A program made the translations under genes and the position numbers. A stretch of 62,156 bases of DNA, the filler included, from Hausera hauseri (lineage: Eukaryota): assembly GCA_046269625.1 (NCBI GenBank). It is 10 parts of 10 records of this genome, joined end to end, with 100 filler letters (N's around TTAATTAATTAA, not from the genome) between each part and the next. Parts side by side here need not be neighbours in the genome. Positions count along the whole stretch, not along the records: positions 41,218 to 46,196 come from JBJURY010372592.1; 9 more parts are not named here. The stretch is one strand, 5' to 3'. This document shows, piece after piece, positions 18,455 through 57,658 of this stretch. The notes beneath the pieces were generated by a model. It ran no database searches and was not told where the DNA came from. It worked only from the letters and a program-made list of their open reading frames with translations. Position 1 is the stretch's first letter, and each line of letters starts with the position of its first letter.

Positions 18455-18470
18455 CCCCCTCCCCTTTTTT
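18455..18470 (-). promoter_or_regulatory. Polypurine tract
   Basis: Minus strand AAAAAAGGGGAGGGGG downstream of the integrase. Confidence 0.6.
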
Positions 18471-21400: not shown

Positions 21401-22008
21401 TAGTAAAGGTTTGATTAGACTTAGTGTGGCAAATGGTAGAAATCGGGCCGCCTAAATCGGACTGCAACAGAAAAGTAAGATTGTTTATATTGGTATTATC
21501 AGTAAGGTTTTTATTCATATTGGTTAATGGTTTCTTCAATATTGATTTTATAGTTGAGATAGGCTGCATGATTGGTTGGTTATTTGTAGTGGTCGACTTT
21601 GTTAAACTGCTTTTAATTATACGATGTTGTCTACAATCCACAAGGAGGTTGTAGAAGGATAAGAAATCAGACCCAAGTATTGGAGATTGTGTGTCGGCAA
21701 CGATGAATATCCAATTGAAAATGTCGGAGAATGGTGGTAAAGTGAATGAATCTTTGGATGTGCCAAAAATTCGTGAAACGTGGCCATTTGCTGTGTACAG
21801 TTTGGTGTTAGACGGGGAGATAGATAGTCTTTTGATGGATGGTGTAATAAAGAAACAGCTGCCCCAAAGTCAATGAGGAAATTAATTAAATGATTGGATT
21901 CGGAGGTTAAAGAAGCTCTTAGTACAAAAACGGCATAAGTACGGCTATTAGATTGAAAACGTTTGCCTGTGCCAGTATGTTCCGAAACATCTGGCAGCTT
22001 TACGAGTT

Positions 22009-22803: not shown

Positions 22804-22877
22804 TAAACCGGGTGTCTAACCGAGTTAAATCGGTATATAGGCAAATTGAATATCCAGTAAGTATTGAACAATCAAAA

Positions 22878-23389
22878 ATGAATACATCTTTAAACCCGAC
22901 AGAACCGATGACGAATACGAAGACAATCGAATTGGTTTTACCGCAATCTCCCGATGCCGAATTGAATTGCTCGCAAATACAAATGAAAATCGAGAAAACA
23001 CTGAAAACGCCACCGAAACCTACCTGGTATGAACCACGAACATTCAAACCGTCAGTTACATATTTCGGCTATACAATCAATTTTCTACGAAAGCCGATAA
23101 TGGTCAGACTTGGAGAAGAAGTCACGTTGAAAACGTGCAAATTCGGCCTGCTCATCAAAGCCATTTGCAATGAGGATGTATCAGAATTGGATAAAGCGCT
23201 GGACGCAGTGATTCAGAACAGTCTATCAATCGATCCAGAAAGTTTTTCCATTAAGAAGTTTAATAAATGGAGTGTGTTCAATTCAATGGGTCAACGGATG
23301 AAAACGCTTCCCGATGAATGCAGAGCCCGAATTCAAATTAAAATCATGGGCTACAAGATAAGTTCAAATGGAAAATCAACTCCAGTCAT
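22878..23389 (+). CDS. Intronless hypothetical protein, possibly a viral OB-fold ssDNA-binding protein; 3'-truncated by contig end
   Basis: Open ~170 aa ORF; the C-terminal WSVFNSMGQRMKTLPDECRARIQIKIMGY..STPV pattern is reminiscent of T7 gp2.5-like SSBs of dsDNA viruses (impression only). Confidence 0.35.
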
Positions 23390-25118
23390 NNNNNNNNNNN
23401 NNNNNNNNNNNNNNNNNNNNNNNNNNNNNNNNNTTAATTAATTAANNNNNNNNNNNNNNNNNNNNNNNNNNNNNNNNNNNNNNNNNNNNTCATTTTTGAA
23501 TATTTTACAACATTTTGTTTTAACACATTTGTAACTTTGAGAGCAGAATTTTGAATAGGCATTTTGAAATAATGAAAGATATAACCATCTCAACAAGAAC
23601 TGTCTACGTTTATGCAAATTTAATAAGTGATACATTAAAACAAAACACATTTTAATAGTGGGTTAATTATCAGACTTATGTATTATTCACATGTATTTGT
23701 GCACTATATATTGATTTAATGGCGTATTGAATCTTTGCACCTTTTATTACCATAGAGTAATCGTATATGGAGAATCGATTGGATTGGTCAACTCTTTCGA
23801 ATAATTTACGCTTGACCAAGTTTTATCCAATTTTCGAGAAAAAAATGGACTTGTAAGCTCGATACAGCAAATCTGATCTCATATTCTGATTCGCCATATA
23901 TGATTTGCTATCCCTCTACGCTCACAGACTTATCGATTTCCGCTTCAGTGAGCATTTTAGCTGATTTCGATTCATTGATTTTTTTAACTGTAGCACATTT
24001 TGAAAATTTCTAACTGGATTTGGGGGTTCTCGCACATGGAAATTCGAATGGTGCAATAAAAATTTCGAATAGTTTGAACTTCGATTTTAAAACTCGAAAT
24101 AATTCGAATTTCGAATATCTGACTATATTTGGAATCTCCATGGTAGATTTCCTATCTACTTACGTTTTCATATTTATGGATTTTTGCTTTCTCTGGCCTT
24201 AAAGACCTATATACCTTCTCCCGCATCTGCACATTTGAGTTGATATTGTTCAAACACTATTCGATCCAATCAAAAACTAATTGCACATTCACATATAGAA
24301 TCGTATTGCACATCGAACTGTATGGTTGACAAGGGCTACCGATCAATTTTAAAATTCTGGGAAAATCGATTTTATAGATTAGCACATGTGCAAAATGCGC
24401 AGGTACAATGTGCCATGGACCGATCGATGCGCCTCGATGTGCTCTATCGATTAGCACTTTGTCCGGACCGATTCCATCAATCCTATGCAGCACAGCGCCA
24501 AATATGTCAAAAGTGAAAAGTGCCTTAGCAACCGTAACCAAGAGAACACTTGATTCGAGTATTTCACTGAACGTTATTGTATCAAGTGCTCTACCTACTA
24601 GTATATGTCCAATATTGATATTATTGATTTTTATTTTATAGCGGGAAGGCCTATGTACCTTCTCCCTCAGTTGGCGTTTTGTCAGAAACCAATCAATAAA
24701 TTTAAATTCTAAATGCACATTTACATAGTGCGTCATATGTGCTTTCGATTTTATCCGTTGCCGGGTTTAAATGATCAATATTGAAATAATCGGAAATCCG
24801 TTATTATTCATTTTTCCACATTTGCGCATGTGCTGCGCACCTGCACTGTGTACTAATCGATGCTCACTGATGTGCTCTATCGATGAACACTTTATCCCGA
24901 TCGATTCGATCTATATAGCGTTGTGCAATTACCGATTGGTCAAACGTGCAAAAATGTGCTTAGCGACAATACCTGGCAACACCCTTGCCTGGCACATGTG
25001 CTGATTGATAGTGCTGCGTGTGCACTATCGATTTGCACATGTGCAACATTTATTTGTCGATACCCCCCCCCAGGTGAGGGAGAAGGTACATTTTCCTCCA
25101 ACAACAGAAAGGGTGTGA

Positions 25119-25661
25119 ATGTCATACGTATCGATTGGAGACAACATCTATTGCGACTCTGTAGCACATATCTGTCAACACTTTTTAAATCAAAAGTACA
25201 AGGACATATTTAAAGTATGCAAGTCAGATGCAAGTAGGTACATGAAATTTGAACTGACTAAAGATACTGTCGACATTTCATTGGGCAAAGCTTTGGTCAT
25301 GGTATTGGGTTTTGAAAACCAGCGGTTTGAGGCATTGAATACGAAGCCGGCGGCGGCACATGTTGCAACTCTTAAACACAAACTAAAAACTGGACTTAGT
25401 CAAATGTACATTTATGTGAACGTCACCGAACTGATTTTGGTCGGTGGAGTACGTGTACCACTACACTGTACAATTTATCTGCAAATCATCAAGTATACTG
25501 CTGGTGACGATAAGTCAAGCTCGATAATCCAATGTACCTACATGTACAACTACATTTATAAAGAATGTTGAAGTGAATATCCCATGTGACGTGGGCTATC
25601 TTATTGAATTTCCGTGCGGTACCACAACCAGTCTAACTCTTCATTTCCGTAAAATTCAATA
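25119..25661 (+). pseudogene. Minor capsid protein (penton-like), 3' half only
   Basis: MYIYVNVTELILVGGVRVPL..TTTSLTLHFRK; homologous to 1280-1815. Confidence 0.8.
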
Positions 25662-25666
25662 ACAAA

Positions 25667-26026
25667 ATGATTGATTCTGAAATCGTTTCCATTTACAGTA
25701 AATCCCAGCATGGCGGTGAAATGCCGTATTTCGTTGGTAAACAGTACGGCTCAAGATGGTTGCGTACATTGGCACGTTTAGCATTTCCGGTGTTGAAGCG
25801 TATTGGAGCCGTGGCAACAAAATCAGCACAGGACGTACTATATGAAAACAAATCGATTTTACCGTCATTGAAGGATCACGCATTGTCAGAAATAAAAAGC
25901 GCTGCACCGAGATTCGTTGAATCAATCAGAAAACAATTCGCTGGCAGTGGCTTTAGAAAATGCCGTAGAGCATCATCGAGCTCATCAACTATAAACAAAC
26001 GTCGTTGTCGTACGATTTTCGATTAA
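25667..26026 (+). CDS. Polinton core/membrane-active protein (PM / pVII-pX-like)
   Basis: Intact 119 aa; QHGGEMPYFVGKQYGSRWLRTLARLAFPVLK; basic tail; lies directly upstream of MCP. Confidence 0.78.
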   Translation: MIDSEIVSIYSKSQHGGEMPYFVGKQYGSRWLRTLARLAFPVLKRIGAVATKSAQDVLYENKSILPSLKDHALSEIKSAAPRFVESIRKQFAGSGFRKCRRASSSSSTINKRRCRTIFD

Positions 26027-26033
26027 CAGACAA

Positions 26034-27264
26034 ATGGCATGTGCAAAATCGGAATTGTATATTCGCAAAGCCGCGCCAAAAGTTGTTATTGACAATGCGG
26101 CATTTGAAGAAATCTGCCCCGTTTATTCGGTTTCAACGGACTATAACATTGACATTCAATTCAACATTATGGCATATGAGAATGAATATCTCGATTTGAA
26201 CGATACGTTAGTTTATGTAAAAGTCATTGTTTAAAGGGAGGCATCAATGGTTCTCGCTGCAACAGACACTGTCACAATGGCCAATTACGTTTTCCTCACA
26301 CTATTCCAGAAGGCTTCACTGACTCTAAACACCATCAAAATTGAAGGCAACACTAGTCTATACAGTATCAAAGTACTCATTGAAACGGCTCTGAATTACA
26401 GTGCAGACACAAAAACGACTTACTTGATGAAAACCATCAGATGTGACACCACTACAGCAAACCGTCACTCATGGGTGGCAGAATCAAAAGGGCTTACAAT
26501 GTGTGGACCGCTGTACTTTGACTTTTTCGATCAGGCGAAATACCTACTGCCCGGTGTTAAAGCCATGATTCGACTCAAATACAGCGACAATGCCTTTTGT
26601 TTGGAAACCACCGTTGCAAATCTCAAACCCATACTGAATATTACCGAGGCACGATTATACGTACGTCGTGTAAAGGAAGAAACATCTGTGCTCATGGGAC
26701 ATCGATTGGGCTTGGAAACACAAAATGCCTGTTACCCTATACAACGCACAGAACTCGTCACTTACACCATACCCAAAGGTTCAACTACGTTTTGCAAAGA
26801 TGCAATGTTTGGCGACATGCAATTGCTAAAATTTGTGCTCGTTACATTTCAAACGACTGTTCAACAAACGGGTAGTTATACCACGGATTCGGAAACGTTT
26901 ACCAATAGCAATGTGAATTACATCAGTTTGGGCCGGAATGCGGATTTCGTTGAGACGCACAAACAAGACTTTGAGTCCAATGATTACGTTTGCACATATA
27001 TGCAATTTATCGTACTCAACATGTTTTCTGAACAAAAACATAAACAATGGCATATCGATGGATTTGTTCAAGTCCGCCTATCCATTCTACACCTTTGTTC
27101 TGGCTCCGCACTATGTCGTTGAACAGACTCAACTACCTCAGCAGGGAAACCTGCGATTGGAGGTTCACTTTGCTAAAGCGTTTCAGCAATCTACCGTGAT
27201 GTACAATTACGGTGCATTTGATGCAGAGGTTGAAATAACGGAAAACGGAACCGTCGTTGTATAA
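26034..27264 (+). pseudogene. Major capsid protein (double jelly roll), nearly full length, one stop and one frameshift
   Basis: MACAKSEL..EYLDLNDT..MCGPLYFDFFDQAKYLLPGV..ITEARLYVRRVK..GNLRLEVHFAK, matching group-1 Maverick MCP motifs; ~410 codons. Confidence 0.9.
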
Positions 27265-27377
27265 ATAAAATCTGCTGTCTCACTTCTTCGCCGTACTATA
27301 AAGTAATTTATTACTATTATCATTATACTTAATTCATATTTAGCTCAACCGAGCTCAGTAATTGCGGAAAACTGCTT

Positions 27378-27701
27378 TTGGGCGTGAAATTTTGTGGCGT
27401 GGTTCCACTAAATGGTGTGCCGCATGATTTACGACAAACTGGCGACAGTGGCTTTATTGTCAATGCACATACTTCGTCGTTGCCGGGCAAACATTACATT
27501 GCTGTGTACCTCCACCATCCGACCAACGTCGTCAGAGTATTCAATCCGCATGGATTTTACTATCCGTCATCGTTAGTTTCGCAAACTGAATGGCAATCAT
27601 CATACCGTGTTGAATATAATCGAGTTCATCATCAACATCCAATGACTATACCGTGCGGACATTACTGCCTATTGTGGCTTACATTACAATCACTTTTGTG
27701 A
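27378..27701 (+). CDS. Adenain-like virion maturation cysteine protease
   Basis: IVN..SSLPGKHYIAV..FNPHG..HQHPMTIPCGHYCLLWL gives the H-(D/N)-Q-C catalytic pattern; follows MCP. Confidence 0.88.
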   Translation: MGVKFCGVVPLNGVPHDLRQTGDSGFIVNAHTSSLPGKHYIAVYLHHPTNVVRVFNPHGFYYPSSLVSQTEWQSSYRVEYNRVHHQHPMTIPCGHYCLLWLTLQSLL

Positions 27702-28462: not shown

Positions 28463-29286
28463 GCAGCATATAAAGTTAGCTACAAGGAATTAGCTGAAAG
28501 CTTTCACGCTTGAAAAGCAACAGTGATTGATTTAGTATCTAAAAGAGGTAGACATCGAATATCATAAGATCTTCAAGATCGGCAGCTAATTCGCCTAGCA
28601 GTTCACGATTCAACAGCAACTAGCCGAAATCTGGCACAACAATGGACTGCTGGAAGCAGTATTCATGCCCATCCACGAAAAATACGAGGTCGATTATGCA
28701 AAGCAGGTGTATATTCCTACATTGCTCCCAAGAAACCTTTACACACAGCCCAACACCGTGCCAGACATCTGCAGTTAGCTAATGATCATATCCATCGGAC
28801 ATTAGCTGAATAGAAGCGTGTACTCTACCGATGAAACTCTGATCAACCTTGTGCAAATTATGCAACGTCGGCGTTTCAGGAGTCGTAGGGGTGCAGGTCG
28901 AATAACAAACATTAGTCTCTTTTAGCTTCGGTGGTGTCTCCATAATAGTATAGGGTGCGTTTTCCTGGGAAGGTATATTTCCCTTTCAGCGCATACGGGA
29001 GACTATTAATGCAGAAGCATACATTAAAGTGCTTCAAAATAATGCGCTACATTTTACGGCTGCAAGAAGCAATTTAATATCAGCAAGATAACGCACCTGC
29101 GCACTGATCTCAGAGTTACCAACTGGTTCAACCAACATCATGTCCATGTAATGGAATGGCCAGCCTGCAGTCCGGACCTGAACCTTCTGGAGAACCGTTG
29201 GGCTAAACTGAAGTCTGAGCTAGAGAAAGAACGCATTCACGAATTCAATGAATTATTTGATGCAGCCAATCGTATATTCCAGTATT
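28463..29286 (+). mobile_element. Tc1-like transposase remnant
   Basis: QDRQLIRLA, KKP..TAQHRARHL, QQDNAPAH and MEWPACSPDLNLLENRW motifs, with frameshifts. Confidence 0.9.
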
Positions 29287-29386: not shown

Positions 29387-30100
29387 AAAACTTGGTTTCA
29401 ACGTGCGGCGGAAATTCAGCGTATTTATAAGGTTTCTCTTCAATCGTTATCGCTGATACTCTATACGTGTCTCCTAAAGTAGTATAAGCATGGAGCTTGA
29501 CAGGAGTCTGCGCGTTATTGGCTATTCTAATCGGTACACGACCGGAGTGTACTCTCGTTAGCACATTACTAAGTGTTATACAAGAATTTAACGTTTCCCT
29601 TGGCTCAAAGTATACTGGTTGATCGTCATCTTGCTGAATTTGTGCGTAAATTATTATCTCCGTTCTTGGTGGTATGTTCTCATCTACCGGTATCCATACT
29701 TCTCCAAATTTTCTATCCCTAGCGTTCTTTACGCCCTTTTTTGGTCTAATTTCAATTAACTTTCCTGTTTGTAAGTCGACCGCTATATTCGATAGCCTTT
29801 TCAACAAATCGTATCCTAAAACAACATCATCAGTTAATTGCTCCATAATTGCGAATTCATGACGAAATGTCTGTCCGATTAATTGGACTTCTGGGTTACA
29901 TTTAAACATTGGTTTTGACATTTGGCCAAAAGCTCCTGTACTTCCTGGATCTTTCGTAGATGGTGCATATAACTGTCCTCTTAGCAAATGAGGTATTGAA
30001 TCATTTTTGATGTAAGACATCTCATACCCCGTATCAATTAACGCGTAAACTTCCCAATCCTCAATAATGATTTTGGCGAACGGTCTTCCTTCGATCACTG
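29387..30100 (-). CDS. Retropepsin-like aspartic protease plus post-protease beta-rich region, in frame with the Env TM and tail
   Basis: RPFAKIII..VYALIDTGYEMSYI..DVVLGYDLL; IPPRTE..VPIRIAN..PVKL..TTLG; same ORF (29331-30911) as the Env TM segment. Confidence 0.9.
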
Positions 30101-30789
30101 TTCCGAAGCAGTTCGATGCTACTTTCGAACGTTTGGTCATTGATATTTTATGTCCGTTTAATCGTATTTCTGCTGCGGATACTATGTTTTCCGATAACTG
30201 TCTTAACTCTTCGTTCGGATATAATTTGTTATTTTCTACGTGCAATTTTTCCACTTCATGAGTACTAATTAGTGGCTCCTGATTGTTAGTATGTAGTTCA
30301 GTATGTTGGAAAGTTTTAAATCTTGGGTTGTCCCAAACTGTCGACCTAGTTTCAATATTCTTAAATTCTCTTGGTAAATACAACATCTTGGGATCATCTG
30401 CGGATTGTCGATAGCACATTTTTCGTAGAATTCCGTAACGTTTTGTTCCCTCGCAGGGATCTTCTACATTAAATGTTCTTTTATAGATTTCCGTGTGATA
30501 TGAGCTCATGGATCGTTTGTCACAATCTTCGTAGAGCGGAGCTGTAGGAGGTAACATGGGCAATGGTGCATTAACGACGGAGTACACCTTATGCCTATTT
30601 ATTCCTGCAAGTGTTTCTCCTCCCTTAGGCTTGTCATCATCTGAATTATTTCTTTGTGTAATAGGTTTTGTAAATTTTTGTTTCAGTAGGAATATAGGCC
30701 TTCTTCTTCTTTTACGATTATAATAGCCAACATGGCGTTCTACATCTGATTTCCATCTATTTTCTTCGTATGATTTCAAGAATTTTTCA

Positions 30790-32610
30790 AAAGGCGTTAT
30801 GATTGCAGTCAGCATTTTACATGAAAATCCAGTTAGTGTAAATATTTCGTATCTATTTATTACTGCTTGGATGACTGTCTTAATAATTTGAATTAGAAAG
30901 TATATTGCCAAAAATCCTGATGTGGCTTATCCGAAAATCAAAAATCTTCCCCAAATTTTGTAGATTATTTCTGTTGTTACTCTCTGATAATGGTTTACGC
31001 CAAGTAATAATTCCCATTTAGCCTGATATCGTGTGTCGTCTACTACAGATGCCATTGCTCGATTTAGCTTATGTGTTCGTTGTCGTGGAAAGGCAAAAAA
31101 TTGTCTGAAAGCCTCGATTTCCTTCGGCCTGTATATACCTTTTGACGAGTGTCTTGAAATTTATCGTCTGTAATTCCTTTTGCAAGATTCGTTCCTGTCA
31201 GCTTGTTTGGAGCGGCAGTGATACCTCCATTCGGTAAACTGACCCAGTCTGTTTCACTACGTCTAAACATTGGTTCTCCTAAGCTCGCTTTACAATCCTT
31301 AAGAATGGTTGGTTGTGTCGCATTATCTAACAACACTCTTGTCAGTGGCATAGCTAATCTCGGAGTATCCTGATAAATGACAGGAAGTTCTTGAAGGCAA
31401 CGTTTTTCCTCTACGTTGATGGGTACTTCTCTCTTTTCACATTCATAGGTTAGTAACACCTCACCGGTAACTCGACCGAAAATTCCTTCTCTCATAGGAA
31501 TTATTGGAGAAGCCAATTCTGGGTTTGCATATATAAGAGCCATTTTAGTTCTCATAATTTCGGTGTCCAATTTACAGTCGTTCATTATCATTTTGTGGTA
31601 TAATTCTGTTATCCCAACTTGTCCCTTATAGTAGAAATAGTCGTCCCTATTTTTGAGGTAGTCCTCAATTCGAACGTCTTGAGTTTCCAATTTGTAAGTT
31701 TTCGTGTTTATTTCTGTTTCGGCTACAAAGAACGCTTCATAGTTTGTGGCGAACATTACTACATCGCAGCGTGTCATCATCCCTTTCTTAATAAATTTTA
31801 GTCCGTGCGGGTCGGAAATTAGTATAGTCGGTGTCGGGTGTTCCGATACATCTTCGCGTGTTCTCGAATTAGTCTCCGATTTATCTACGTATCGTTTTCC
31901 GCTGGTTTCGTTAAACTTTAACTCTTTGATTCTGATGAAGTTACAATTCCTTCCAGAGGGAGGTTCCCATATTATGACCGAGCTTCTAAAAGCGCATGTT
32001 CCGTCCTGCATATGACATTTCTGGTTCTCGGTGTATAGTTTCGTAACACTATGAAACATTACTTTTTGTGATCGCATTTCTGCTTCGTAGAAATCCACGA
32101 CCACGACATTTGATTCTAATCCTTTTCCCGTGTCATATTCCGCTCCATTACAATGTCCGCTATGCATATCCAATCTCCCAGCTACTACTTTGTATGCTCT
32201 AATTATTTTTCCGGGCTTCATTTCCAGTTGCATGCTATCCCATTGTATCCTTCCAGTTTCTTTAGCTTGTTTGCAATGTTGGCGCTCTAAATTCATCGGA
32301 ATTAAAGGGGTGGTGGGCTTAATTATGGAGGAGTGCCCATGTATTAGTCCGCAATGAAAAATGCTGCGTGAGCGTTTTAGTATGCATTCCATACCATCTA
32401 ACGATACCAATTCTTGTTGTTGATACAGGAAGTAACTTTTCTCGCGCGTTTCTAGTTTGTGTGGCCTCGCATCTTCGCAGGCTTCTAGATCCATTAGAGA
32501 ATATTTTTGTCCCAATTTAAACTTGTCACAATCGTAGACAGTTACTGCACTTATGTGCTTCATTATCATCATTAATGTAAATAAACTAATCAGCCAGTTC
32601 GATTTAGTTT
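30790..32610 (-). CDS. env: Class III viral fusion glycoprotein (chuvirus G / herpes gB-like) with internal signal peptide and TM anchor
   Basis: WLISLFTLMMIMKHISA|VTVYDC..YSL..C; C...HCG..HSS; GHCNGAEY..NVVVV; GEVLLTYEC; CLQELPV; then (frameshift) GIY..E..FP and WGRFLIFG*ATSGFLAIYFLIQIIKTVIQAVI..GFS..LTA, the motif series of chuviral-type glycoproteins. Confidence 0.85.
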
Positions 32611-33319
32611 TTCGACCTCCAACGTCCGATGTTGTCAGACTACGTAATATATCGTCGAGCCTATTGTTGCCGGGTTTATCTTCTTCCTTATCAAATAATT
32701 TTGTCCAATTTACTTCGCCGGGTATTTTTCTCGCCGCCTTCCGTGCTAAATTTATTGCTCGGTTGATTTCAGTTTCTCGGTTCGGGTTTATTTTGACGGC
32801 TAAATACAGCATAACTTTCCTCAATTCTTCATTCGTGTTTTCTACCATAATCTTCTCTATTACCGACTCATCGGTTAAGTTACTTTTTGATAGTTTGAAA
32901 CGAGTACTTTTCATTACTTTAGCTGCGTCGAAAATTATCTTTTCCTTATCATCTAGTACGTCTCCTCGAAAACTCGAATAATTCACGATCCGTACTAAAT
33001 TTTTTATCAACTCCGTTAACTCCTCGTTTTCGGTACTAAGGGTCGGAATCGACATTTGTCTCAATTCTCTGATTAGCTCTCCTTTGTAATCCACTTCTTC
33101 TCGAATCTTCCTAGGTCTGCCGACCGGACGTTTCGATCTTGGACCTTTAGGGTTTGCATGGTTTAGTGGTACTAAATTTATATCGTATTGTTCTTTATCT
33201 TCGTCTGTTTGTAAATACTCAAAATATAGCGCCGCATCTCGAACTCCCATAATTTGTCCAACGCATTGCTCTGCTATGGCCTTGCTTGTGGCTTCCTCCT
33301 TTGTCTGTTCATTAGTTGC

Positions 33320-33541
33320 TATTACTACTATTCGATTTGTTTCGTCGGGGATGATCCCTACGTCTATCAATTGTTCTAAGTCATCTAATATTCTACCCCT
33401 AAAATAAAGTCTATAACTCAGCTCATTTGTCCCTCCATTCTTCACTAGCCATTTTTTTACATCCTTTACGTAAGAATGTGTAGTCAGTTCGCATTCTTTC
33501 TCGTCCATCCATTCGGCTGACACCATAACTTTCATCGTCAC
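33320..33541 (-). CDS. Ubiquitin-like domain within the 1333-aa ORF
   Basis: VKDVKKWLVKNGG..YRLYFRGRILDDLEQLIDVGI matches the ubiquitin-fold pattern V..+K..+...G...RL.F.G+.L.D...L.D.GI; no C-terminal GG. Confidence 0.7.
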
Positions 33542-36369
33542 CTCAGGTTTAGCCCTTAAAGTTTTAGCGTACTTCTTTATCAGCAGTTTCGGCACCGTAC
33601 TATAAATTGTGTTTTCGCTAGACAACTTAGTTAAAGTTGGAATAAGTTGTCGTAGTTTATTCTCAGTAATATTTACGTTAATCAATTCCATCAAATCTTT
33701 CTCAGTTAGGGCTGAGTCCAGTAGCATTTCTACTTTGAACCTCCTGTCCTTGGGACAAGTTTCTATCTCGTTTAGCTGCACGGGAGTCATGGGTTTTTCG
33801 GCCAGTATCTCGTCGAAATATGCATCCCAGTCGGGTTCGTTTCCAGCATCTGGAAGCTGGCAGTCCACTACAACCGTATTGGCTCTTTTATTGTTCTCCC
33901 GAATTCCCTTTAATTTGGGTTGTATTTCTTTCATTCTCGTAGTTCGGAAACCTACTCCATTTCCACAGGCATATTGTATAGCTTTTAGTAATTCCCCGAA
34001 TTCGTTAGAATCAATCAACCCTTTTTGATGATAATCTGTTAATTCAAGAATCACATCCTTTTCCCACCGTTTTACAAATTCTCGTTTATTTTTAATCTCC
34101 GATTCAGTAAAAGCATACTTATTACGATAGACCGCGAGCTCTTTTGTTAATTCATCCATTCTTATCGCTTTTTGTTTCGTTTTGATAGCCGTTTCTTCTA
34201 CCTTGTGTATTTTGGGCATCAGTTGCCTCATCTGCTCATCGCTGATTTCCGCCATTTCCACCAATAAATGAGCTAATTCATACATCTCATTTATGGTCTT
34301 TGAATCCGGATCCATCGCATCCGATAATTTCTTCACGAATTTGTGTTCCTGAAAGCTAAAATGTGGATCATTTCCTATTTCTATTAACTTGGTATGGAAA
34401 TTCTGATCTGATCCGACCATCCATTCTTGAGGTCTCTGTAAGAAACTTATTGCGTCAGTTAGCGTATCTCGGTATCCTGGACAAATGTCTAGGATTTCAA
34501 TATCTTGTGCAAGAATTTCATTGATTGGTTTTCCGGTTAAGTATTGAATCCCTTCCAGCCGGACGACCTTTAACTTTGAATTTACATCGTGAATCATATT
34601 CCGTTTCTCCGTAAAATTTGTTTCTTCGATCAATTTGTAGATTTCTTCCATTGTTGATAATTCTCGTTCCTTTTCCATAAATTTCAGTTGTCGCAACGCT
34701 TCAAATTGAGTACGGATATTTATCTCTATTTTCAACGTGGCTAAGTTGTGCGCACTCTCCTCTAATCGCTGCTTCACCGTTTGCTCGCTTTGTGGAAATT
34801 CCGCTTTACGATCTTCTACCAATTTGGTTAGTCGCGCTACTAACTTGCACCATTCTGGCAATTGATTTGTAATTACAGGCTTCGCCATTACGGCTTTATC
34901 TAACATCTTGTACGCATCTTCTAGTTCATCATCCGGTCCTTTCAGGAAATTCATAACTCGTCCGATATAGTTAAACTTGTCCTTGTATTCGTCTAATTCT
35001 ACAGTACAGGCCTTTACTATATATTGAGTCTCTTCATGGTTGGGGAACATGATACGGTTCCTCAAGCTATAAATTTGTGCTCGCTTTTAATTTTCTATCT
35101 TCAGCCGGTTCTCCAAGTTTGTATATTGTTTGAGCGTATCAAATGCGATTTTTATCATCTTTATTAAAGGAGGAATATCTAACGGATCTATACCCATTAT
35201 TTCCAAGTCGATATTACTGCGTTTGTTAGGCGGTCTTTCCCTAAGCCGTTTAATCATCGCATACCGAATTTCGTTCATGATACGTTTTACGTTACGAACT
35301 ACTCTCTTCAGTTTCGGGTTTTCTTTTAATGTAGACAATAGGTTTTGGGTCTCAGTGACTTTTACTTCAACTTTATCTTCGTTCTTATTCCATCCTTCTA
35401 CAAACTCGACTCCGCTTTTGATCCACAATTCTAATTCGTGGTTCCATTTTGGTAATCTTTTCGGAGATACCTCTTCCGGCTGGCGTACCTCGATTGCTTC
35501 AACGAATTTCCCTTCGCTACGTAATTTCAAACTTTTATATAGCTTCTCGGCGTATTGTTGTTCTTTTCCAGATATATCGACTTGTTCGATAATTCGCTTG
35601 AGCTTTTCTAAATTTCGTTGCAATATTTCAGGCTCTAAACAATAAATTCTTATTTTCTTTAATTCGTCGGCGTTTTTCCATGAACGTCGGATTTTCCACT
35701 TCTTGGGCTCAAAATCTTCAGTAATCATTGTTTCTTCCTCACTAATGGGAAGTGGGCATATTTCGTTAATTTCGTCAATTGACTCTTCTGGTTCTGGTGT
35801 ATTTAAGCCAAGGTCCGTGCCGCCTTCTAGAACGACGCTCGGCTTTTCTGTTTTCTCAATTTTCTTTTTGTTATTTTGGAACGCGAACGGCTTCTATGTT
35901 TGGTTTTTAATGATGGGCTGCGGCCTCTATTTTTTGTAATTTTAAGTATTAATGGCTCCATGAATTCTTTTTCTGTCGCTTCATCTTCAGTAAGTTTAGC
36001 AACTTTTTCAACTGCGAGGTCGGGCTCTGCGTCTAAATCGACTACCGTCGATGGGCCTGATTCATCGGGCACCTTGTTACTTGTCGGAATACTCTTCTTC
36101 TGTGTCATATCGCTTCGCTTAGGTGCTATCTCGTGCTCGTATTCCGTTTCGGGTTCTGTTAGACCATGATATACCTCTAGCAATCGCAATTTATCTCCGT
36201 ATTCTCTTCTGGCCATCAAAATTTGTACGTTCGTAGTGTCTGGTTGAGTCTCCAAGAATTTTCTCAAATCCTGTATATCGATGATGGTGGTCGTATCTCC
36301 CCGGACGCCATATTTTGCTTCTAAGTTCTCATTAATTCTAATCATACTAGTCTTATTTGGTTCCGTAAA

Positions 36370-36926
36370 TGAAACGCTACGCGGATTTGGACACGACCTC
36401 GAAATGTGTCCTTCTTTGCCTCAAGTAAAACAAACCAAGTTTCCATTCCTGCCGACTCTCTGTCGACCGTCTTCGTTAACTGGTGACTTGGATCTAATTA
36501 TGCCTTTACTAAACTGAATTGACGGGCTTTGCGTATTATCGGTATATCGTTTGTTATCATTACCTCGGTAATCGCCAGTTTGATTTGAGTAGGTCGAACT
36601 TCTGTAACTTCCTCTATTCCTATCCCAATCCGAGTCTGGTTTGTTTGTATAATTATTACCTCTGCCATTTCTGTAACTGTTATTATTATTCCTATTTCCA
36701 TAATTTCTATTACCTGTAAATCGTCTGTCATCTCTTCGGTCATCTCTTCTATCATTCCTTCCATGATTTTCATTGCGATTTCTATCATTACGGTCACTCC
36801 GATCAGTATTCCTCTCGTTTCTATCGTTGTGCCTGGCGTATCTATCCAGCGCCATTTCTAGATCTTGAGCTAGTCGTAAGGTTTCTTCAAAATTTTCAGG
36901 TCTGGCCAGAATCAATTGTTTAACTA
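36370..36926 (-). CDS. gag: Gag C-terminus with R/D/N-rich region and CCHC zinc knuckle (one Cys codon now TGA)
   Basis: LARPENFEETLRLAQDLE capsid C-terminal motif; CFT*GKEGHISRSC fits CX2CX4HX4C. Confidence 0.85.
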
Positions 36927-37599
36927 NNNNNNNNNNNNNNNNNNNNNNNNNNNNNNNNNNNNNNNNNNNNTTAATTAATTAANNNNNNNNNNNNNNNNNN
37001 NNNNNNNNNNNNNNNNNNNNNNNNNNGGAAATTTGAAAATTGAGGAAACATATACACTGAATCGTCGAGATTGTCATCCAGGAATAATGGGTGGTAAAAT
37101 ATTTTCGTTGATGTAGGTCTATAAATCTAAGACGGATGGATACAAGAACTAATGACTTCCCATAACATTTTGTCTGTCATTACAAAAAAATATCTGGAAA
37201 CTGGCCTCTCAGTACTTTCATTACAACTTACATGACTTTACGACATTCATCATATGGACTTTTTTAACATCGTACTCTTCACCTTAAATTTCAGAAGCCG
37301 TAAATCCAACAGTTCCTAGCATCGTATCCAAAATCGCCATGCTTAACATTTAGATATCGATCCGTCGTTTGCTTTCTAAAATGAGAGTAACATGTTGGAG
37401 AGATTGCTATCGCCACTTGAAGTTGAATTTTCGCCTCTTAGGAAATGAGCTCTGTCCCCCCATGGTCAGATGAAGACTATAAAAAGAAGAATAAATGGAG
37501 ATTATAGTAGGAAAAGGAAGAACTTGTATCTATTTGGTTATCGTCCGTGTTAGACGTTGGACTCCGTCTATAAACTTCTCTTTGCTGTAAGTACTTAAC

Positions 37600-40500
37600 G
37601 TCACATGACGTGATTTGTTAGATGTTACTGGTGCTTTTGGAGTTATTCGAGGGAGAGATACTGTGGATTTTGTGGTGCTTTGGGAGGATGCTTAATAAAA
37701 AGGAGAGAGTAGAGAAGAAACTGAGAAAGGAAAAGGATCACGCAAAGAAGGTGAGACTGGAGATGGCACCGAATCGCGCGATGAAGGTGAAATGAGTAGT
37801 GGATGTGCAGGCGATGACGGAGAGGCAGATAGTGAGGGAGCAGTTGATGATGACGAAGTGAAGAGAGCTGATTTTGACTCGAGAGTGAATGCTGCGAAGA
37901 ATTAAACTCATCAAGGACATTAGATGATGACTCGAGTGTAGAGAAGTTAAAGTTGGGATTTGAAACAATGCTGTTATCCTGGTCATCGTCAACGAAGAAG
38001 GCTGGATTAAGATTAAAGATATGTACGATTTGACATTTGTCCTTGCGTAAAATAGTAGTGGTATGCGAAGAAAGGTTCAATAATTTGTAAGGGTTAACGT
38101 ATTGGGGCCGAAAACCAGAAGGCAACGGATCCTTCAGCCATACAAACTTATCTGAGTGTAAGTCGTCTGGGATATAAGATTTGTCTTTATTCATGAAACG
38201 GCAAAAGCGTTTGAGTTGACATCAGCAAAGTGGGGCTTTGCCGCACGAATAATTTCATTTGACGGACTTTCATCAAGATTGGAAAGCTCAAATAGTGCAC
38301 GAATTGGTGTCTCAAAGAGAGCCTCAGCTGGAGCACAGCCTGTGGTGGTGGATGACGTGTTGCGCCATCCGAGTAGGACAAGAGGAAGAATAGAAGTGCA
38401 GTTTTGATTGTTGTTTGCCATGATTTTTAAGCAAATCTTCATAGTGCGATGAAATCCCTAGAGAAGACCGTTTGCTTGGGGATAGTACGACGTCGTATGG
38501 AAATGGGCTATCCCAAAGTGCTTTACAAGAGATTTGAAAAGATCAGCTTCAAATTTCGGACCCTGGTCCGTTATAATGTGACGTGGTGAGCCAAAATGGC
38601 TGATCCATATCTTGATAAATGCATCAGCTACTAAGTCAGTGTATTTAATCGAAGCGGAACGGCTTCCGGCCAGCCAGAAGCGCGATCCATCATGGATAGG
38701 ATATATTGATAACCATTGTCGGCAGATAGAGGACGCACAAGATCCAAATACATGGTTTCAAAACGAGAAGTGCAAGGGAAGTGGTAGAGTAATGATTTGA
38801 GGTGTTTATGAAACTTGTATTGTTGACATGCTACACATCTCTTGACCCAGATCTGTATATCGTTACGCATAGTTGGCCATACAACGTGGCGTTGCAGTAG
38901 ACGAAATGTGGCTTTTAAACCCGGATAATGAAGAGAGTGAAAGTGATTGAAATCTGTCTTTTGTAGCGATGGAGCAAAAATGATTTTCTTGTTGGTCGAG
39001 TTGGAAGTGTCATAATATATGTCATCTATGATTTCAACAGATTTGAAAGCTTGGAGAATATAAGATGATGGCTGATTGCTTCTCAGGACCTCAGAGGAAG
39101 AAATTGGCTGATCTGTAATTGAATTAACCGACCGCGAAAGAAAGTCTGCTACTAAATTTTCGGTGCCTTAAATATATTTCATGGAAAAACTAAAGTTGAC
39201 AGTTATGATGTTTGTCGTTCTTGCCAGGGTGAGGGATGTTTCAAAGTCATTATGTGAAGTAGATGCTTATGGTCGGTTTGGATGATAAATTGGCGTGATA
39301 GAAGCTAGTGCTTGGAAAGCTTTACCGCTAGAACTACAGCCAAGAGTTCACGATCGAATGTTGAGTATCAGCTTTCGGGTTGCGTGTGCTTTCGGGAATA
39401 GAATTCTAATGGTACATGGATGACATTGTATATTTGGCGTAATATTGCACCAATTGCTGTGATTGAGGCATCGGTAGTTAATATTAGTTCAGCGTTTAGC
39501 TTTGGAAAGACCAGATTATCACAGTTTTCAGACCTTCACGAAGGCGATCAAATTGGTTTACTAAATGGGGAGTCCAAAGGATTTATTATCTTTTCTTTCC
39601 AGATGAGAGGCGTGCGAAAGGTGCCGTTATTACGGAGAAGTGTGGCACGTATTTGTGTACGAAATGCAATGTCCCTAGAAAAGTCCTCATATCGGTAATA
39701 GTAGTTGGCAACGTCACATTTTTTAACCGTTGTAAGCGATCAGGCTGGGGCGAATGTCCTTTGGGAGTAATTATGTGGCCTAAGAAGTTGACACGTTTCT
39801 GGAAGAAATTGCATTTGGTGAAATTAACTTGCAGGTTGCTTTGATGCAATCTGTGAAGAATAATCATAAGGTGCTTATTATGTTGTTGGATGGAGGAGGA
39901 AGCGACTAATATGTCATTTATGTATGGGCGAGTAAAATCAAGACCAGAAAGAACGGTGTCAATGTGGCGCTGAAAGATCTGATATGCGCTACGAAGGCCG
40001 AAAGGCATGAAGATGTATTCATAAAGACCAAATGGTGTGATGACAACAGTTTTTGGTATATTATTAGGAGCAACAGGAATTTGATTGTAGGCTTTGTGCA
40101 GATCAATGGTAGAATAGGTATTGGTGTTGTTGAGGCTACGAACAATATCTTTAATGAGTGGTAGTAGATAGACATGCAACAGTTAGATTGTTTAATTGTC
40201 GATAGTCGCCACATGGTATGTAGATACCATCTTTCTTTACTACTAAATGAAGAGGAGACGCTCACGGTAAATGCTATCTCCGAATGATTCCAAACCTTTC
40301 CAATTTATTAAATTCCTGTTCCACAGATTTACATTTGCGAGACGACAAGGGTCTGACCTTTTGTTTGATCGGCCTCTAACACTCTGTTATTATGTGATGA
40401 TAATTTGTGGATGGAGGCTTAAAGTTGAAGTCTTTTTTAACTATGCGAAAGCAAGACGTTGTGACGTATGATTTAAGATTGGAATCTAGAGACAAGAATG

Positions 40501-41117
40501 AATGAGGCATATCATTAGAGAGAACAGCTCCAGTGATTGACAAAAAGCAACTGGCATCGCTACTGTACACGCCTAATTTGGATTTTTGGTATAGAATAGA
40601 TTTATGATTGTCGTTCATAACTGAAATATTATCGACTTTATCGGACGTTTTTATAGATGAAGAAGCATTCACCAGGTTCATAGATGAGTGCAGTGAATTG
40701 CTCGCTAAAATATCTACGAGGCACATGTTTGGAGTTGCAATTGATTTCCTGCTTAAAAGACAGCTGTATTTGCAATCGACCAAAAGATTATATGCAGCGA
40801 GAAAATCTGAGCCTATTAAGGGAGATTTAATGTTGGCCACGTGGAACTTCTGGACAAACTTATGCGGCAAGTTTGCGAATGTAAAAGTCATTTCCGTGGT
40901 TTCTGCAACATGCAACGGTTGGCCACTGGCAGTGAAAAGCGGTGGACAGGAAATCATAGTCTATGTAGGAACGAATGACAAGCGAAGGAGCGAAAAGACA
41001 GCTCCTGAGTCTATAAGGAAGTCGATATGTGAAGTATCTCTGCATAGCAGTACAGCTTTGAACAGAAAGACTGCAGAGGCCGTGTTGAAACGGCCAGAAG
41101 ATTACGTTATGTTGCCT
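37600..41117 (-). mobile_element. Degenerate Ty3/Gypsy pol (PR-RT-RH-IN), related to 18455-22810
   Basis: FLIDSGAVFS protease, IDLHKAYNQIP..TPFGLYEY..YINDIL RT, LITDAS RNase H, MDRASGWPEAVPL integrase. Confidence 0.92.
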
Positions 41118-41217: not shown

Positions 41218-44150
41218 ATACTTAGTAACATACTGACAGGAGTACACTCCGGTTGTGTACCAATCAGAATAGCAAATAGTGCACCGACTCCCGTCAAGCC
41301 TTATGAGTATACTACTTTAGGAAATACTTATAGAGTGTAGTCTATAACTATTGAAGAAAAGCCTTCCAAGTATGCCGAATTCCCACCTCATATCGAAACT
41401 AAGTTTTCCTCCAAATCTTACTTCCGATTCTATGAATTATTATGCCGTAATAAATCGATTATTGCTAAAGACAACGAAGATATCGCCAGAGCAAAAGCAT
41501 TAAAATTGACTATCCCGGTTAAGAAAAAGCCGGGTTCAAATGAAGAAATAGATCTTGAGGACCAGAAGATTCAGAAATGGTATCCTCCACCTCATTCACT
41601 GAATCACGAGATAACAAAGGAGGTCGAATGGATGCTTAAGGCCGACATAATCAGGCCCAGCTATAAATCTTGGTATTCACCAATTCTTATTGTCAAAAAG
41701 AAAGATACTAAAAAACATCGATTCTGTATTGACTACAGAGCATTAAATAATCCTATGATGAAAGATTCTTTTTCATTGCCATCAGTAAAAGAGGCTCTAG
41801 GCAAACTCTCAGGAGCAAAATGGTTTATCACTCTGGATTTACAATTCGGATATTGGCAAGTAAAAATCGAGGACGAAAATCGATATAAGACAGCGTTCAA
41901 GATACATGATGGCGTTTATGAATTTAATGTCATGCCATTCAGTGTTACTACCGGACCAGCCATCTTTACAAGGATGATGAATAAAATGTTAATGGAACAA
42001 GACCATGCTCTTGCATACTTAGATGAGGTAATGATGGCGTCCAGGACAGAAGAAGAATACTTAAAATATATCGAACACACGCTGATGCGACTGGAACAGG
42101 CCGGATTGAAACTAAATCCGAAGAAATGTAAATGGGCTCAAAACGCAGTGTTCTATCTTGGCCATATAGTTAGAGAAGGAGGATGAAAAACAGATAAATC
42201 ATTGTTGAACAAAATAACAGATTGCATGAAGCTACAAAATCAGAAAGAGTTAAGACATTGGCTAGGTCTCTGCGGATATTATGCAACTTATGTTCCCGAC
42301 AACTCGAAATAAATGCACCCCTGTATCGCCTACTTAAAAAGGAATTAAATGGAAATAGAATGATGTTGAACAGAAAGCTTTCGACAAAGTGAAGAAGATA
42401 TTAACAAGCGAACCCATTTTACGATACTTGGACTTTAACTTACCCTTTATAATCAAGGCAGATGCCAGTAAAGAAGGCATTGGGTATGAATTTGCACAAA
42501 ATAGAGAAGATGAAGAACTATAACACTCAATTGCTTATGAAGGACGTTCCTTGAAGAAGGCTAAAAAAAATTATTCCATCAGCGAATTAGAAACTTTAGC
42601 CGTTAAAGAAGCGCTACGACATTTTAATGTTTACGTGTAAGGGGCAAAAAATCATAATTGTTATTGATCACAGAGCCGTCAGGATCCTAAAAGGACTAGC
42701 AAACAATCCAACATGTAGACTTAACAGATGGATTGAAGACATCTCCACGTATAATATTGAGTTTTAGTATAAACCAGGAAACAAACATGTAGATGCCGAT
42801 GCACTATAGATATTAAAGATCAAAACAAGTGCAATTATTGTACTGAAGAAAAGTCAGCTTGAAGAAATAAGAGATCGTCAGCGCATCTTAACGATGAATA
42901 AAGCTTTAAAATCTCAACCGAACAAAGAAAGGATAAAATATCCATCAGATTATAGAATTTTCTGAAAAGGATATAGTACTAAAATGACGACAATTAAAGA
43001 AACATCTACGTAGGCACGGACACAAATATTGCGTTCTGAACAACAAGGGCCTCGAAAACCTTCTATATTATGAGCGAAAAAGAGGAAAACTGATAGTAAT
43101 TCCGAAAAGCCTACGAATTGAAGTTTTGATGTCGGAACACGATTCATATTTGGCTTGACACATGTCCTGGAAGAAAACATTAGAAAGAATATTGAACAAA
43201 TACTTTTGGACCAGCATTTATATCGATATAAAGAATTGGGTAAATGCTTGTGAAGCATGCGCAACTAAACAGAAAAGAGCAAAGAACTACATAGCAGAGC
43301 TAAAACCAATTGCCGTACCATATAGGCTTATGCAAGCCGTGTCAATGGATATTGTGGGACCGTTACCCACGACTCACAGAAATAATAAGTATATATTGAC
43401 TTATATAGATCGGCTAACTCATTTTGTGTAATTAATAGCCTTGACTGACCAAAAGGTAGAAACCCTAACATAGGCTGTAGTGAGAAGAATTATTTATAGA
43501 TATGGAAATCCAGATGAAATACTGACAGACCGAGGAAGAAATTTTACTAGCGAACTGTTTGGGAAGATTATTGAAATATCTGAGATTAAGCGGTTAACTA
43601 CCACCTCATACCATTCTCAATGTAATAGAATGGTTGAACGAATGAATGCAACTGTCATACGCATACTATTAACAGTGGTAGCTAAGGACTAAAAAGATTG
43701 GGACGAATTTTTAGAAGAAATCCAGTTTGCAATCAATACTACACCCCATCCGGCAACAGAATTTACGCCATTCTTCATGATATATGGACAAAAAGCTGTA
43801 TTACTCACAGATTTAGGTATGACACCACACACAGTAAATCCCGAAAATTTGGAACAAAACTTTGCAGAAGTATTACGGCGGCGACTACAAAAGTGTTGGG
43901 AAATCGCTGAACAGTTACCACAAGAATATCAAGAACAGTTTGAAAAGCAATACGATAAAAAGGCAAAGCCACGCGATTTAGAACCAGGAAATTTGGTTTA
44001 TGTACATTATCCAGTAGCCAAGAAAGGTACGTCGTTAAAACTGACTCATACGGACAGAGGACAGTCGGAGTTATCAGAGTTACGCCAACTACGGTGTATA
44101 TCAACAAGAATGGAAAGTAAGAAGTCGTGTGTATACAAAAAGTTGTTAAG
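41218..44150 (+). mobile_element. pol: Pol (RT-RH-IN) of a sibling copy of the envelope-bearing element, degenerate
   Basis: 41218-41408 is a diverged homologue of the reverse complement of 29387-29580; then RFCIDYRALN, LDLQFGYWQ, YLDEV, ADASKEGIG, CEAC, VSMDIVGPLP, TDRGRNF, VERMN in Gypsy order. Confidence 0.92.
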
Positions 44151-45146
44151 ACGGAGATACTGCCCAATAAACGCAAGATAAAAACTTCTTCAGTAATTAC
44201 TAGACAGATATCATACGTTCAGATAGTTTTAGCACTAACGTTAATTGCTTCTCGTATCCCGAGAACACAAACTCAATGGCGGTACGATAAATCTACGCTA
44301 GGAAACGTAGACGGAATATGGAAAAGCGGATTAAAGGCGAAAAATACCATAGCGGAGAAGAAACCAACAGCCGAAGACATCCAAAAACAAGAAGACACTA
44401 GACTGATACAATCAATGACCGTTAATTACTTTTCTCCAGACGCTGTCTGTGTAGGATTTAAGAATAGAAGACCATATCACGTTTTCCGGAGATTTCAAAT
44501 AGTCCTGTACGACACAGCAGTGAAGGAAAGCAAAGAAGAAAAATTTTTAACCCGGAGATTATATCCAGTGTTGCAATATAGACTTTGGACATACTTACAA
44601 CCTTACTTATCGCCTGTATTTACCAGACTCAGCAGAAGTTTATATTGAAGTAAATCCACCACTTCAGTTGGTCATTCATGCTTTAATCAAATTATTCGAA
44701 GTAAAGCCCGACGAAATGCTTCAATCCACCGACCAAATTGGAAGGATATTAGACGAGAATATTAAGGGAGTCTCAAGAAACAAAGATGGACGATGATTCC
44801 AAGTAGATTCTGGAACGGAATTAAATTTTAATCAAGAAATCTGTATTGTTTTTGAAGCAATAAGCGGAAAACTCCGAAAATAAAATACTGTTCTGTTCAT
44901 GCCGGTGTGGAACACCCATGTTGTAAGTTACCAGTAAACCAAGAATTCAAAATAAAATTTGATCTACATGACGTACGACCGAATAAACCGAGCAAACATT
45001 TGAGAACCTATTACCCGAAGAATAGAATATGGAGGATTCCAATAGAAACGACAACCGAAAAGCCAACTGCTCGAGTTAGTGCCATTACGAGACCCGTTAC
45101 ATCCTTTACACAAGTCAAACGGCGGTGGAAACGGGTAGACTCATAG
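44127..45146 (+). pseudogene. Unknown ORF continuing from the integrase C-terminus, with a hydrophobic signal-like segment
   Basis: Same frame as the GPY/F-region tail (GVIRVTPTTVYINKNGK*EVVCIQKV); ISYVQIVLALTLIA; coding-like sequence continues with frameshifts to ~45146. Confidence 0.5.
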
Positions 45147-45147
45147 C

Positions 45148-45700
45148 CCATCAGTAGTTGAGCATTTCATATTATAGCCGCCTCACGATCAGACGAAAGA
45201 ATCCAGGTGAAAATGGCAACCGAACGAAAAATACACCGAAAAAACATATTATTAAAAGTCTAAGTCAAAATCATATAGTAGGTAGAAGTGAGCTTTCAAC
45301 CCCATTTCCAAAAGTGTTCAGGTCGACCTCGGACCAAGTTTTCCCCACCTATCTCGCAATTCTGATTATTTCATGTTTTGTGGTCGAGGACCCCCCAGCT
45401 GGAAGCACATGTCACAGTTGCACATGCCACCGATGGAAATCGGTAGAGCTCGATGAGTGGAGCAAATTTTCTAGAGAGGCGAGAGTCAAAAATTTTACTG
45501 GGCGGCGCTAGATGCAAAAGAAGAAAAACAGGAAATGTTTTATGAGAAACGAGACACGTGTTACGAATTGCGCAATGTTTGGTGCAAATGTCAAATCAAT
45601 ATCGGGGTATCGAATGCACACAATTTCAGCGTTGCCTGACCATGGGAACATGGAGAAAAATTAATGGGGAAATTTCAAACTATAAATATTTCCCATTGTT
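45148..45700 (+). repeat. Second copy of the candidate Polinton terminal region (sub-blocks in permuted order)
   Basis: 45277-45700 matches the reverse complement of 28035-28461; 45148-45274 matches the reverse complement of ~27880-27996. Confidence 0.75.
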
Positions 45701-46119
45701 ATATTGCAAGGCATATAGGATCACTAAATAGTTTGCCGAATATAATAAAGAGTTTACCAAACTTACTTATGGGACATTTTGGGTCCAGTACAAATGTTAT
45801 TATTGGTTCAATTATGTTGCAAATATTGTAGAAATCTAAATTCTTCTATTTACATTAGAAAGGTCTAAGTAGATGCAGATGGCATGTTGTCCGATCATGA
45901 CATCTGCTGTGATCCTTCTGATCATCACACTAAGACTGCAGGAGGGTTAAACAGTCAGACCAGAAGCAGAAAAATGTAATCTGCAAATATTAACTGGACT
46001 CTCCCTTTTGCAGTGCTGCAAAGGAAGGAAATGCTATTGTTTTGTTTTACCATCTAAAAATGAAACCTAAAAAAGGTTTTAATATTTGCAAATATATACA
46101 TTCAATTAGTATGTGATGT

Positions 46120-46196
46120 GGGCTGCACAGTGGCGCAGTTGGTAGAGCTGTTGCCTTGCAGCAAGAAGGTTCTGGGTTCGATTCCCGGCCCGGGGT
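46120..46196 (+). mobile_element. 5' head of a tRNA-derived SINE of teleost type (probably host or contaminant DNA)
   Basis: A box TGGCGCAGTTGG and B box GGTTCGATTCC around GCTGTTGCCTTGCAGCAAGAAGG, a head I recognise from fish SINEs. Confidence 0.7.
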
Positions 46197-56929: not shown

Positions 56930-57658
56930 CCGCGCGAATCAATACCGAAAATGAACTGTACTGCGATTCATTGTCAGATCACAGTAAAAAAATTCAGTCG
57001 TCAGATTTGATACTCAGCGGCCGAATCCTCAATGCAGTAGATAATGACGGAGTTGTTTCCGTTTTGAAAATATTAAAGGGCTTCAAAATAATCAATGAAG
57101 TTCGAAGGTCAAGTCAGAAAAATGACTATCATTTAATTGTCATTCGGCATATTGATAAAATGAAAGACTGTCAAATAACTCCAAAAGCGGGAGAAGATTA
57201 CGTGTTTTATTTGAAAAAACCGATCAACAAAATTTCTTCGAATACCTTTTCAGTAATGAATACGGTGATGGGATTTTGGAAAACGCATTTATGCATTTCT
57301 AAATGGTATAAATTCAACCATAAGGTATTAACTGTTTATTTGACTTTAAAGGTGTCCCAAGTAGACTTGTTCAACGAAACGATCCATGTTCCAAGTTAAA
57401 CTGTAAATTCGGAGCAACTTGTACAACGTGGCCTTCTCCACAGCCAAAAGCAGTTTGCCATTGTTCGACTACACAGTGTAATCCAGGAAACGACGAGACG
57501 AAAGTTTGCGGCAGTGACGGATCATTTTACGAAACGGAATGCCATCTGAAATTGCAGCAGTGCTTATCACAGCGCGCCATAATGATATCGCCGAAACGAA
57601 TTTGTGATGGATCGATGGATACTGAGGCACAAAGTAAAACCATTGATGGGATATTATA
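56930..57658 (+). CDS. Agrin-like secreted protein: NtA-like domain plus follistatin/Kazal domain (exon borders approximate)
   Basis: C..SDLILSGRI..VSVLKILKG..DC..YVFYL (NtA-like); DPCSKLNCKFGATC..CHC..C..VCGSDGSFYETECHLKLQQC at ~57380-57606. Confidence 0.7.

Follow-up and report, generated by a model that had tools for sequence, protein, structure and literature searches.

Decayed Ty3/gypsy contigs in the Hausera hauseri assembly with a gB-like env ahead of the protease, likely of the Burro or GAG-ENV-POL type

Two contigs of the Hausera hauseri assembly (GCA_046269625.1), designated A and B, are best read as the decayed remains of a high-copy Ty3/gypsy element of the Burro or GAG-ENV-POL type, each from one of two likely sister copies. 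Its intact form likely encoded one long polyprotein (probability about 0.8). Both lie in a window of 62,156 nucleotides, the whole stretch of DNA analyzed here, which is composed of ten contigs with N-spacers between them. Contig A occupies 29387-36926 on the minus strand and contig B occupies 41218-46196 on the plus strand.

Results

Contig A from Gag to protease

Contig A was followed from Gag to the spacer beyond the protease (Table 1). The Gag knuckle is interrupted by a stop at 36421-36423, and the Gag N-terminus lies beyond the contig edge. The accessory region is interrupted by a frame change near 35830-35896 and by a stop at 35087-35089. Except for the ubiquitin-like domain, it showed no family match in Pfam, and the protein atlas returned no usable match. 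This ubiquitin-like domain was also matched upstream of env in P0108 (E 2.5e-5, 13-sequence set). The hydrophobic segment directly before the ectodomain falls below the 1.9 threshold of the 15-mer scan, while relatives have a stronger segment at the same place, and it is likely an internal signal sequence; the signal and anchor calls on A come from a simple hydropathy scan, not a signal-peptide predictor. The ectodomain has a frame change near 31066-31163 and a stop at 30927-30929. Its structure was predicted with a pLDDT of 92.9 from a 102-row alignment, and comparison of the model with the PDB identified herpesvirus gB (E 3.6e-13), which occupied 37 of the 37 listed rows. Additionally, the protein atlas placed the env of A in a Monjiviricetes cluster at 0.94. 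The frame 30926-29387 is open from the env anchor through the linker and protease to the spacer, with zero stops, and contig A in total has 3 stops and 2 frame changes over 7.5 kb. The sequence-only reading held that the second contig fixes env upstream of pol; env does precede the protease, as is seen from contig A alone, whereas B does not play that role, its own upstream env being deduced from homologs.

Table 1. Features of the element on contigs A and B, with positions in the window
Position	Strand	Feature	Basis
36250..36926	-	Gag C-terminal part, RG/N-rich stretch, CCHC zinc knuckle	zf-CCHC E 0.013 (under cut-off), knuckle match to P0118
32597..36249	-	Long K/E-rich accessory region between Gag and env	Translation, domain scan
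33287..33574	-	Ubiquitin-like domain, weak	PF00240 E 0.0016, under cut-off
32537..32593	-	Hydrophobic segment directly before env ectodomain	19-mer hydropathy 1.76
30930..32548	-	Env ectodomain, Monjiviricetes-type, herpes gB fold	PF24664 E 9e-41; predicted fold
30858..30914	-	Env transmembrane anchor, shares one open frame with protease	Domain scan; hydropathy 2.07
30090..30857	-	Env tail/linker, PTAP motif (30537-30548) and LYPxxxL motif (30204-30224)	Motif scan
29790..30089	-	Aspartic protease, DTG at 30035	Domain scan, motif
29387..29576	-	End of contig A, post-protease spacer, overlaps B	Ungapped alignment, codon analysis
41218..41407	+	Start of contig B, homologous spacer, 77% identical to A, stop at 41338	Alignment, codon analysis, shuffles
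41408..42345	+	Reverse transcriptase and connection; altered catalytic motif at 42016; stops at 42184, 42310	Pfam, motif scan
42346..42810	+	RNase H; two frame changes, three stops	Pfam, motif scan
42991..44190	+	Integrase: HHCC, D-D-E core, C-terminal part	Pfam, homolog mapping
44191..45146	+	Possible post-integrase extension, opens with hydrophobic segment 44193-44249	Translation, hydropathy

The region before env was also modeled from the single sequence (pLDDT 37; best VIA Z 6.7). In this low-confidence model, a helical region at 32600-32900, ahead of the env signal, weakly matched C-terminal domains of retroviral capsids (Z 4.8-6.5); these matches stood among unrelated helical rows and were not counted as evidence. 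The structure matches listed for the same model included no BCL2 row, and P0111 showed a weak Bcl-2 match at the same place, just before env. A metagenome search for related loci yielded 28 pattern matches, with 0 confirmed, and no RNA data set with the element was among the matches listed.

The env tail of A combines PTAP and LYPxxxL motifs. Of 13 linkers, 5 contain [LIV]YPx(1-3)L (shuffled expectation 0.24), 4 contain YPxL (0.45), 2 from one cluster contain PPxY (0.42), and 1 contains PTAP. These patterns were picked after three of the 13 sequences had been inspected; among the ten linkers not inspected beforehand, 3 have a YP-L motif. Among the titles listed in one literature search, none dealt with late domains in the env tails of Gypsy elements. 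We treat the motifs as a possible lead for ESCRT budding, not as a result.

Contig B from reverse transcriptase to the post-integrase stretch

Pfam matches on B follow the order RVT_1 (E 1e-30), RT_RNaseH_2 (2e-13), Integrase_H2C2 (8e-11), and rve (4e-4, under cut-off), in agreement with the earlier claim that B runs on into reverse transcriptase (RT), RNase H, and integrase in Gypsy order. The closest matches of its pol have Gypsy-order pol domains, and the named ones among them are Ty3/gypsy proteins; the RT core is at most 48% identical to anything retrieved. The integrase has four stops in the core frame, a frame change near 44065, and a stop at 44118, and the contig up to 44120 has about 11 stops and 4 frame changes. 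Uninterrupted frames, a feature of intact elements, are absent from both copies. Contigs A and B are relics, and this state bears on the two copies, not on their lineage.

The stretch at 44191-45146 showed no homolog in the 259-protein set or in Pfam. A search of B for a 3' env with the env profile found no gB-like sequence anywhere on the contig, this stretch included. A post-integrase hydrophobic segment followed by a second one is present in 4 of the 4 checked relatives that extend well past integrase (P0262 is not among them), and the segment on B may start a second lumenal piece. The codon count is 2513 for A and 914 for B to 44150, about 3430 in total, or about 3760 to 45146. A reconstructed polyprotein of more than 3700 aa, as proposed earlier, is therefore not reached at 44150 and is reached only if 44191-45146 is coding; including this stretch may be fair, given the hydrophobic segment shared with relatives.

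Overlap of the two contigs

Positions 41218-41407 of B align with 29576-29387 of A without a gap, with 146 of 190 nucleotides identical. Residues are identical in 49 of the 63 overlap codons (78% protein identity), and the differences fall 7/7/30 on codon positions 1/2/3. With 28 synonymous and 14 non-synonymous changes (Fisher p 4e-12), dN/dS, the check proposed for the overlap, is 0.075 at a dS of about 1.4. The overlap is under purifying selection, and these values indicate that the lines of A and B diverged as working elements, long ago. Thus, the first ~190 nt of B do match the end of the env-protease ORF with many synonymous changes, and both translations given in the sequence-only reading were reproduced, including the stop at 41338. 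At 3 of the 3 listed places of difference, the majority of other copies carry the letter of A, so that the decay at these places is private to B.

Short public contigs matching A and B number in the thousands, in support of at least two diverged copies. The accompanying idea of one family fits less well with 77% identity and a dS of about 1.4, and on sequence grounds A and B are more aptly treated as sister subfamilies.

Relatives that join env and pol

A search with the ectodomain of A returned 557 matches, and the domain scan covered 18 taken from 150 by score or length. Env, protease, and RT lie in one chain in 5 of these 18, and env is followed by protease in 5 more; integrase precedes env in 1, and 7 have no pol domain. 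The cluster members P0258 and P0262 are two further chains with env, protease, RT, RNase H, and integrase. Overall, P0108, P0110, P0117, P0121, P0124, P0258, and P0262 carry env through RNase H as a single chain, with integrase too except in P0124, and P0113, P0118, and P0120 have Gag motifs joined to env in one chain. Env identity of the env-pol relatives is 26-33%, and for the RT core it reaches no more than 48%. Three of them, P0108, P0110, and P0258, are collinear with A and then B, and the overlap falls on the same residues from both sides.

Against contig B, the env-pol relatives rank 1-6, 10, and 53 among 115 proteins, a set that includes 107 found with the RT of B itself, the env-pol relatives having been found through env. 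Against Gypsy contigs 2, 4, and 7, their best ranks in the same set are 10, 5, and 4. The env-pol set also supplies the top 4 RT and the top 5 integrase matches of B among 259 proteins. In the RT tree, from which 18 near-redundant plant rows had been dropped, B lies on a long branch at an open fork. The integrase tree and a second RT tree were built from the top 32 covering matches, without P0259; B is a weak sister to three env-pol rows in the former (86/37) and stands beside a non-env row in the latter (85/94). A single clade of B and the env-pol rows was not rejected (p-AU 0.48, 0.35). The three trees put B outside or only weakly beside the env-pol clade.

Between env and RT, P0109, P0110, P0112, P0113, P0120, P0123, P0258, and P0262 appear to have at least two protease-like domains; P0258 has up to six such stretches, and contig A shows one. 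The best env-pol relative, P0108, is assigned in its record to a Flavobacteriaceae MAG, where its contig is 9 kb long, and is likely a misbinned animal sequence.

Read depth, host, and other repeats in the window

Public contigs from two runs (X1 and X2) cover all 30 bins of A and of B. In most bins of B, the element is about 50 to 90 times deeper in X1 than in X2. The last bin holds a tRNA-like SINE, likely of fish type, and is about 48 times deeper in X2. This opposite depth of element and SINE points to two genomes, and the element is likely not that of the fish. It is likely from a flatworm, and a free-living worm sampled together with fish DNA would also accommodate the data. At 45866-46196, single-copy DNA covered by X1 gives way on B to DNA covered by X2, with the SINE at its end; this tail is either an assembly chimera or fish DNA inserted in a worm genome.

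A 595-bp repeat at 45106-45700 has a related unit on contig 5 (27879-28462), with the order permuted between the two. Apart from the SINE, no part of B has greater depth in run X1. The repeat contains a short palindrome near 45662-45697 and occurs in tandem, as public contigs join its end to its start. It may be a satellite or a rolling-circle-type element. Its reading as an LTR was set aside, given that TG..CA ends and a purine tract were not seen and that the order is permuted relative to the contig 5 copy. Rfam gave no match on 45000-46196, nor did ARAGORN on the whole window.

Three other decayed Gypsy pol fragments (4492-11201, 17818-23389, and 37027-41117) are not closest to the env-pol set. 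Contigs 5 (24900-27700) and 1 (4-1781) share about 1.8 kb at 78%; their ORFs, which have no Pfam match, are reminiscent of the capsid and protease genes of Polinton/Maverick elements. Positions 28568-29286 hold the remnant of a Tc1-like transposase, and contig 9 (49736-52306) has DNA polymerase B, endonuclease VII, and RING-finger matches as a decayed Polinton-like element. Host-like immunoglobulin and Kazal domains are found on contigs 3 and 10 (11438-11710, 57324-57656), and contig 3 has a 366-bp inverted repeat.

Comparison with described elements

Burro/GYPSM1, the giant Gypsy-like elements of planarians, are described as gag, a ubiquitin-like domain, in-frame env, protease, spacer, and pol, with a mononegavirus-like env in frame between gag and pol and an internal region of up to 25 kb (PMC6431247). 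By this published description, A/B resemble Burro in a CCHC Gag, a long accessory region, an in-frame env between gag and pol, high copy number, and decayed copies (PMC6431247). The ubiquitin/SUMO-like domain upstream of env in Burro may have a counterpart in A, where the PF00240 match is under cut-off. Where Burro has a dUTPase-like domain between protease and RT, A/B have a spacer that suits it in size and position and lines up with relatives; it has no Pfam dUTPase match. In contrast to the two or three knuckles of Burro, one is seen on contig A, and the BCL2, MATH, BIR, and ankyrin domains described for Burro have no Pfam match in A/B (PMC6431247).

GAG-ENV-POL errantiviruses of the HSV/gB type within Ty3/gypsy are reported from Platyhelminthes, Nematoda, and Bryozoa, and the nine annotated flatworm elements come from the free-living Macrostomum, Prostheceraeus, and Schmidtea (PMC13524379). 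They and A/B are alike in gene order, Gypsy pol, gB fold, and an ectodomain between a signal-like segment and an anchor, and in a by-eye comparison the A ectodomain shares the cysteine spacing and a C-terminal ATNY motif with six Schmidtea rows; the published elements are intact, whereas A and B are decayed (PMC13524379). The non-canonical nematode ERVs of Sacco et al. 2022, as cited in PMC13524379, are a metavirus with env before pol, a feature that, by description, A shares. The unnamed env-pol polyproteins join env, protease, RT, and RNase H in one chain collinear with A then B, several of them with extra protease-like copies.

For A/B, the Ty3/gypsy order of protease, RT, RNase H, and integrase is made up of the protease on A and the remainder on B, joined through the overlap and homologs only. 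A class III ectodomain, env between gag and pol (on A; by deduction for copy B), and flanking signal and anchor segments were found, and by gene order, ectodomain fold, and topology the element belongs to the gB class of GAG-ENV-POL errantiviruses; its assignment to Burro proper is tentative. No LTR was recognized on B, the 5' end of the element lies beyond contig A, and neither contig has a primer site. Env before pol in one frame is the layout of this lineage, as already published for Burro/GYPSM1 and the GAG-ENV-POL errantiviruses.

Discussion

The joining of A and B depends first on whether their overlap could reflect a generic likeness between unrelated Gypsy families or an assembly artefact. 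The presence of three other Gypsy pol fragments in the window and the possibly chimeric tail of B would fit such an origin, but the overlap spacer is poorly conserved, alone matching 0 of the 259 proteins, and yet retains 78% protein identity between A and B. Moreover, the best of 100 shuffles over all offsets of A reached just 81/190, and a 350-bp public contig is identical to B with zero differences, so that we give this origin hardly any credence. Env upstream in the line of B is very probable, although it is derived from homologs, the listed public contigs being shorter than 400 bp each. B could instead represent an env-less sister subfamily, with env deleted or never there and thus specific to the line of A. 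The 77% identity and the dS leave time for a loss, the trees do not place B within the env-pol clade, and, as B begins at 41218, the bridging to env rests on homologs. However, the high ranks of the env-pol relatives (1-6) are specific to B and do not extend to the other Gypsy contigs, other copies have the letters of A at the listed overlap places, and in both runs the depth over the env region of A equals or exceeds that over its protease region (summed contig depth, a rough guide). We consider an env-less line of B improbable.

Env might also lie upstream but in a separate frame, reached by programmed frameshift or read-through, with no single giant polyprotein. Programmed frameshifts commonly sit just after Gag, and one of the two frame changes of A, which also has three stops, sits there. 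Against this, A has no stop between the env anchor and the protease, env through RT forms a single chain in the seven natural relatives, and P0113, P0118, and P0120 hold Gag motifs and env in one chain; the break after Gag also has an indel in one public contig, a weak indication. Furthermore, about 98% of the depth from public copies differs at the stop at 35087-35089, and at the env frame change an indel sets 20 public contigs apart from this copy, and both interruptions therefore look private to A. A separate env frame is, in our judgment, very improbable, and one long polyprotein in the intact element is preferred.

For this polyprotein, the order of signal, ectodomain, anchor, and Pol suggests that it would be threaded through the membrane. 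Alphaviruses and flaviviruses thread their polyproteins through the membrane in a comparable way. Gag and the accessory domains would be made in the cytosol, and the hydrophobic segment at 32537-32593 would serve as an internal signal that the host signal peptidase cleaves. In the ER lumen, the ectodomain would then adopt the fold of a class III fusogen. Transfer would halt at the anchor (30858-30914), and the protease, RT, RNase H, and integrase would stay tethered on the cytosolic tail until the protease frees them during assembly. We infer the env upstream of B, the single Gag-to-integrase frame of intact copies, and the topology, processing, particle release, and host of the element. A fuller picture would be a Burro-like enveloped element at high copy in a fish-parasitic flatworm, with a polyprotein crossing the ER membrane twice (the fusogen before Pol and a second membrane protein after integrase) and ESCRT budding by late domains on the Env tail instead of Gag; taken as a whole, this picture is speculative and rather unlikely.

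The order with env inside Gag-Pol has been in print since 2019, and A/B add a divergent lineage to the small set of Gypsy elements whose Gag-Pol polyprotein encloses a fusogen. For the threading and cutting of such a polyprotein, the hydrophobic segment that relatives share after integrase is a place to look, as are the late-domain-like motifs. In the survey table, cestode, monogenean, and trematode rows have one env-pol env match each in 3 of the 40 rows viewed (50 in total, many cells blank), and five free-living flatworms have 5 to 253 (PMC13524379). If the host is a parasitic flatworm, the known range of env-pol Gypsy elements would be extended.
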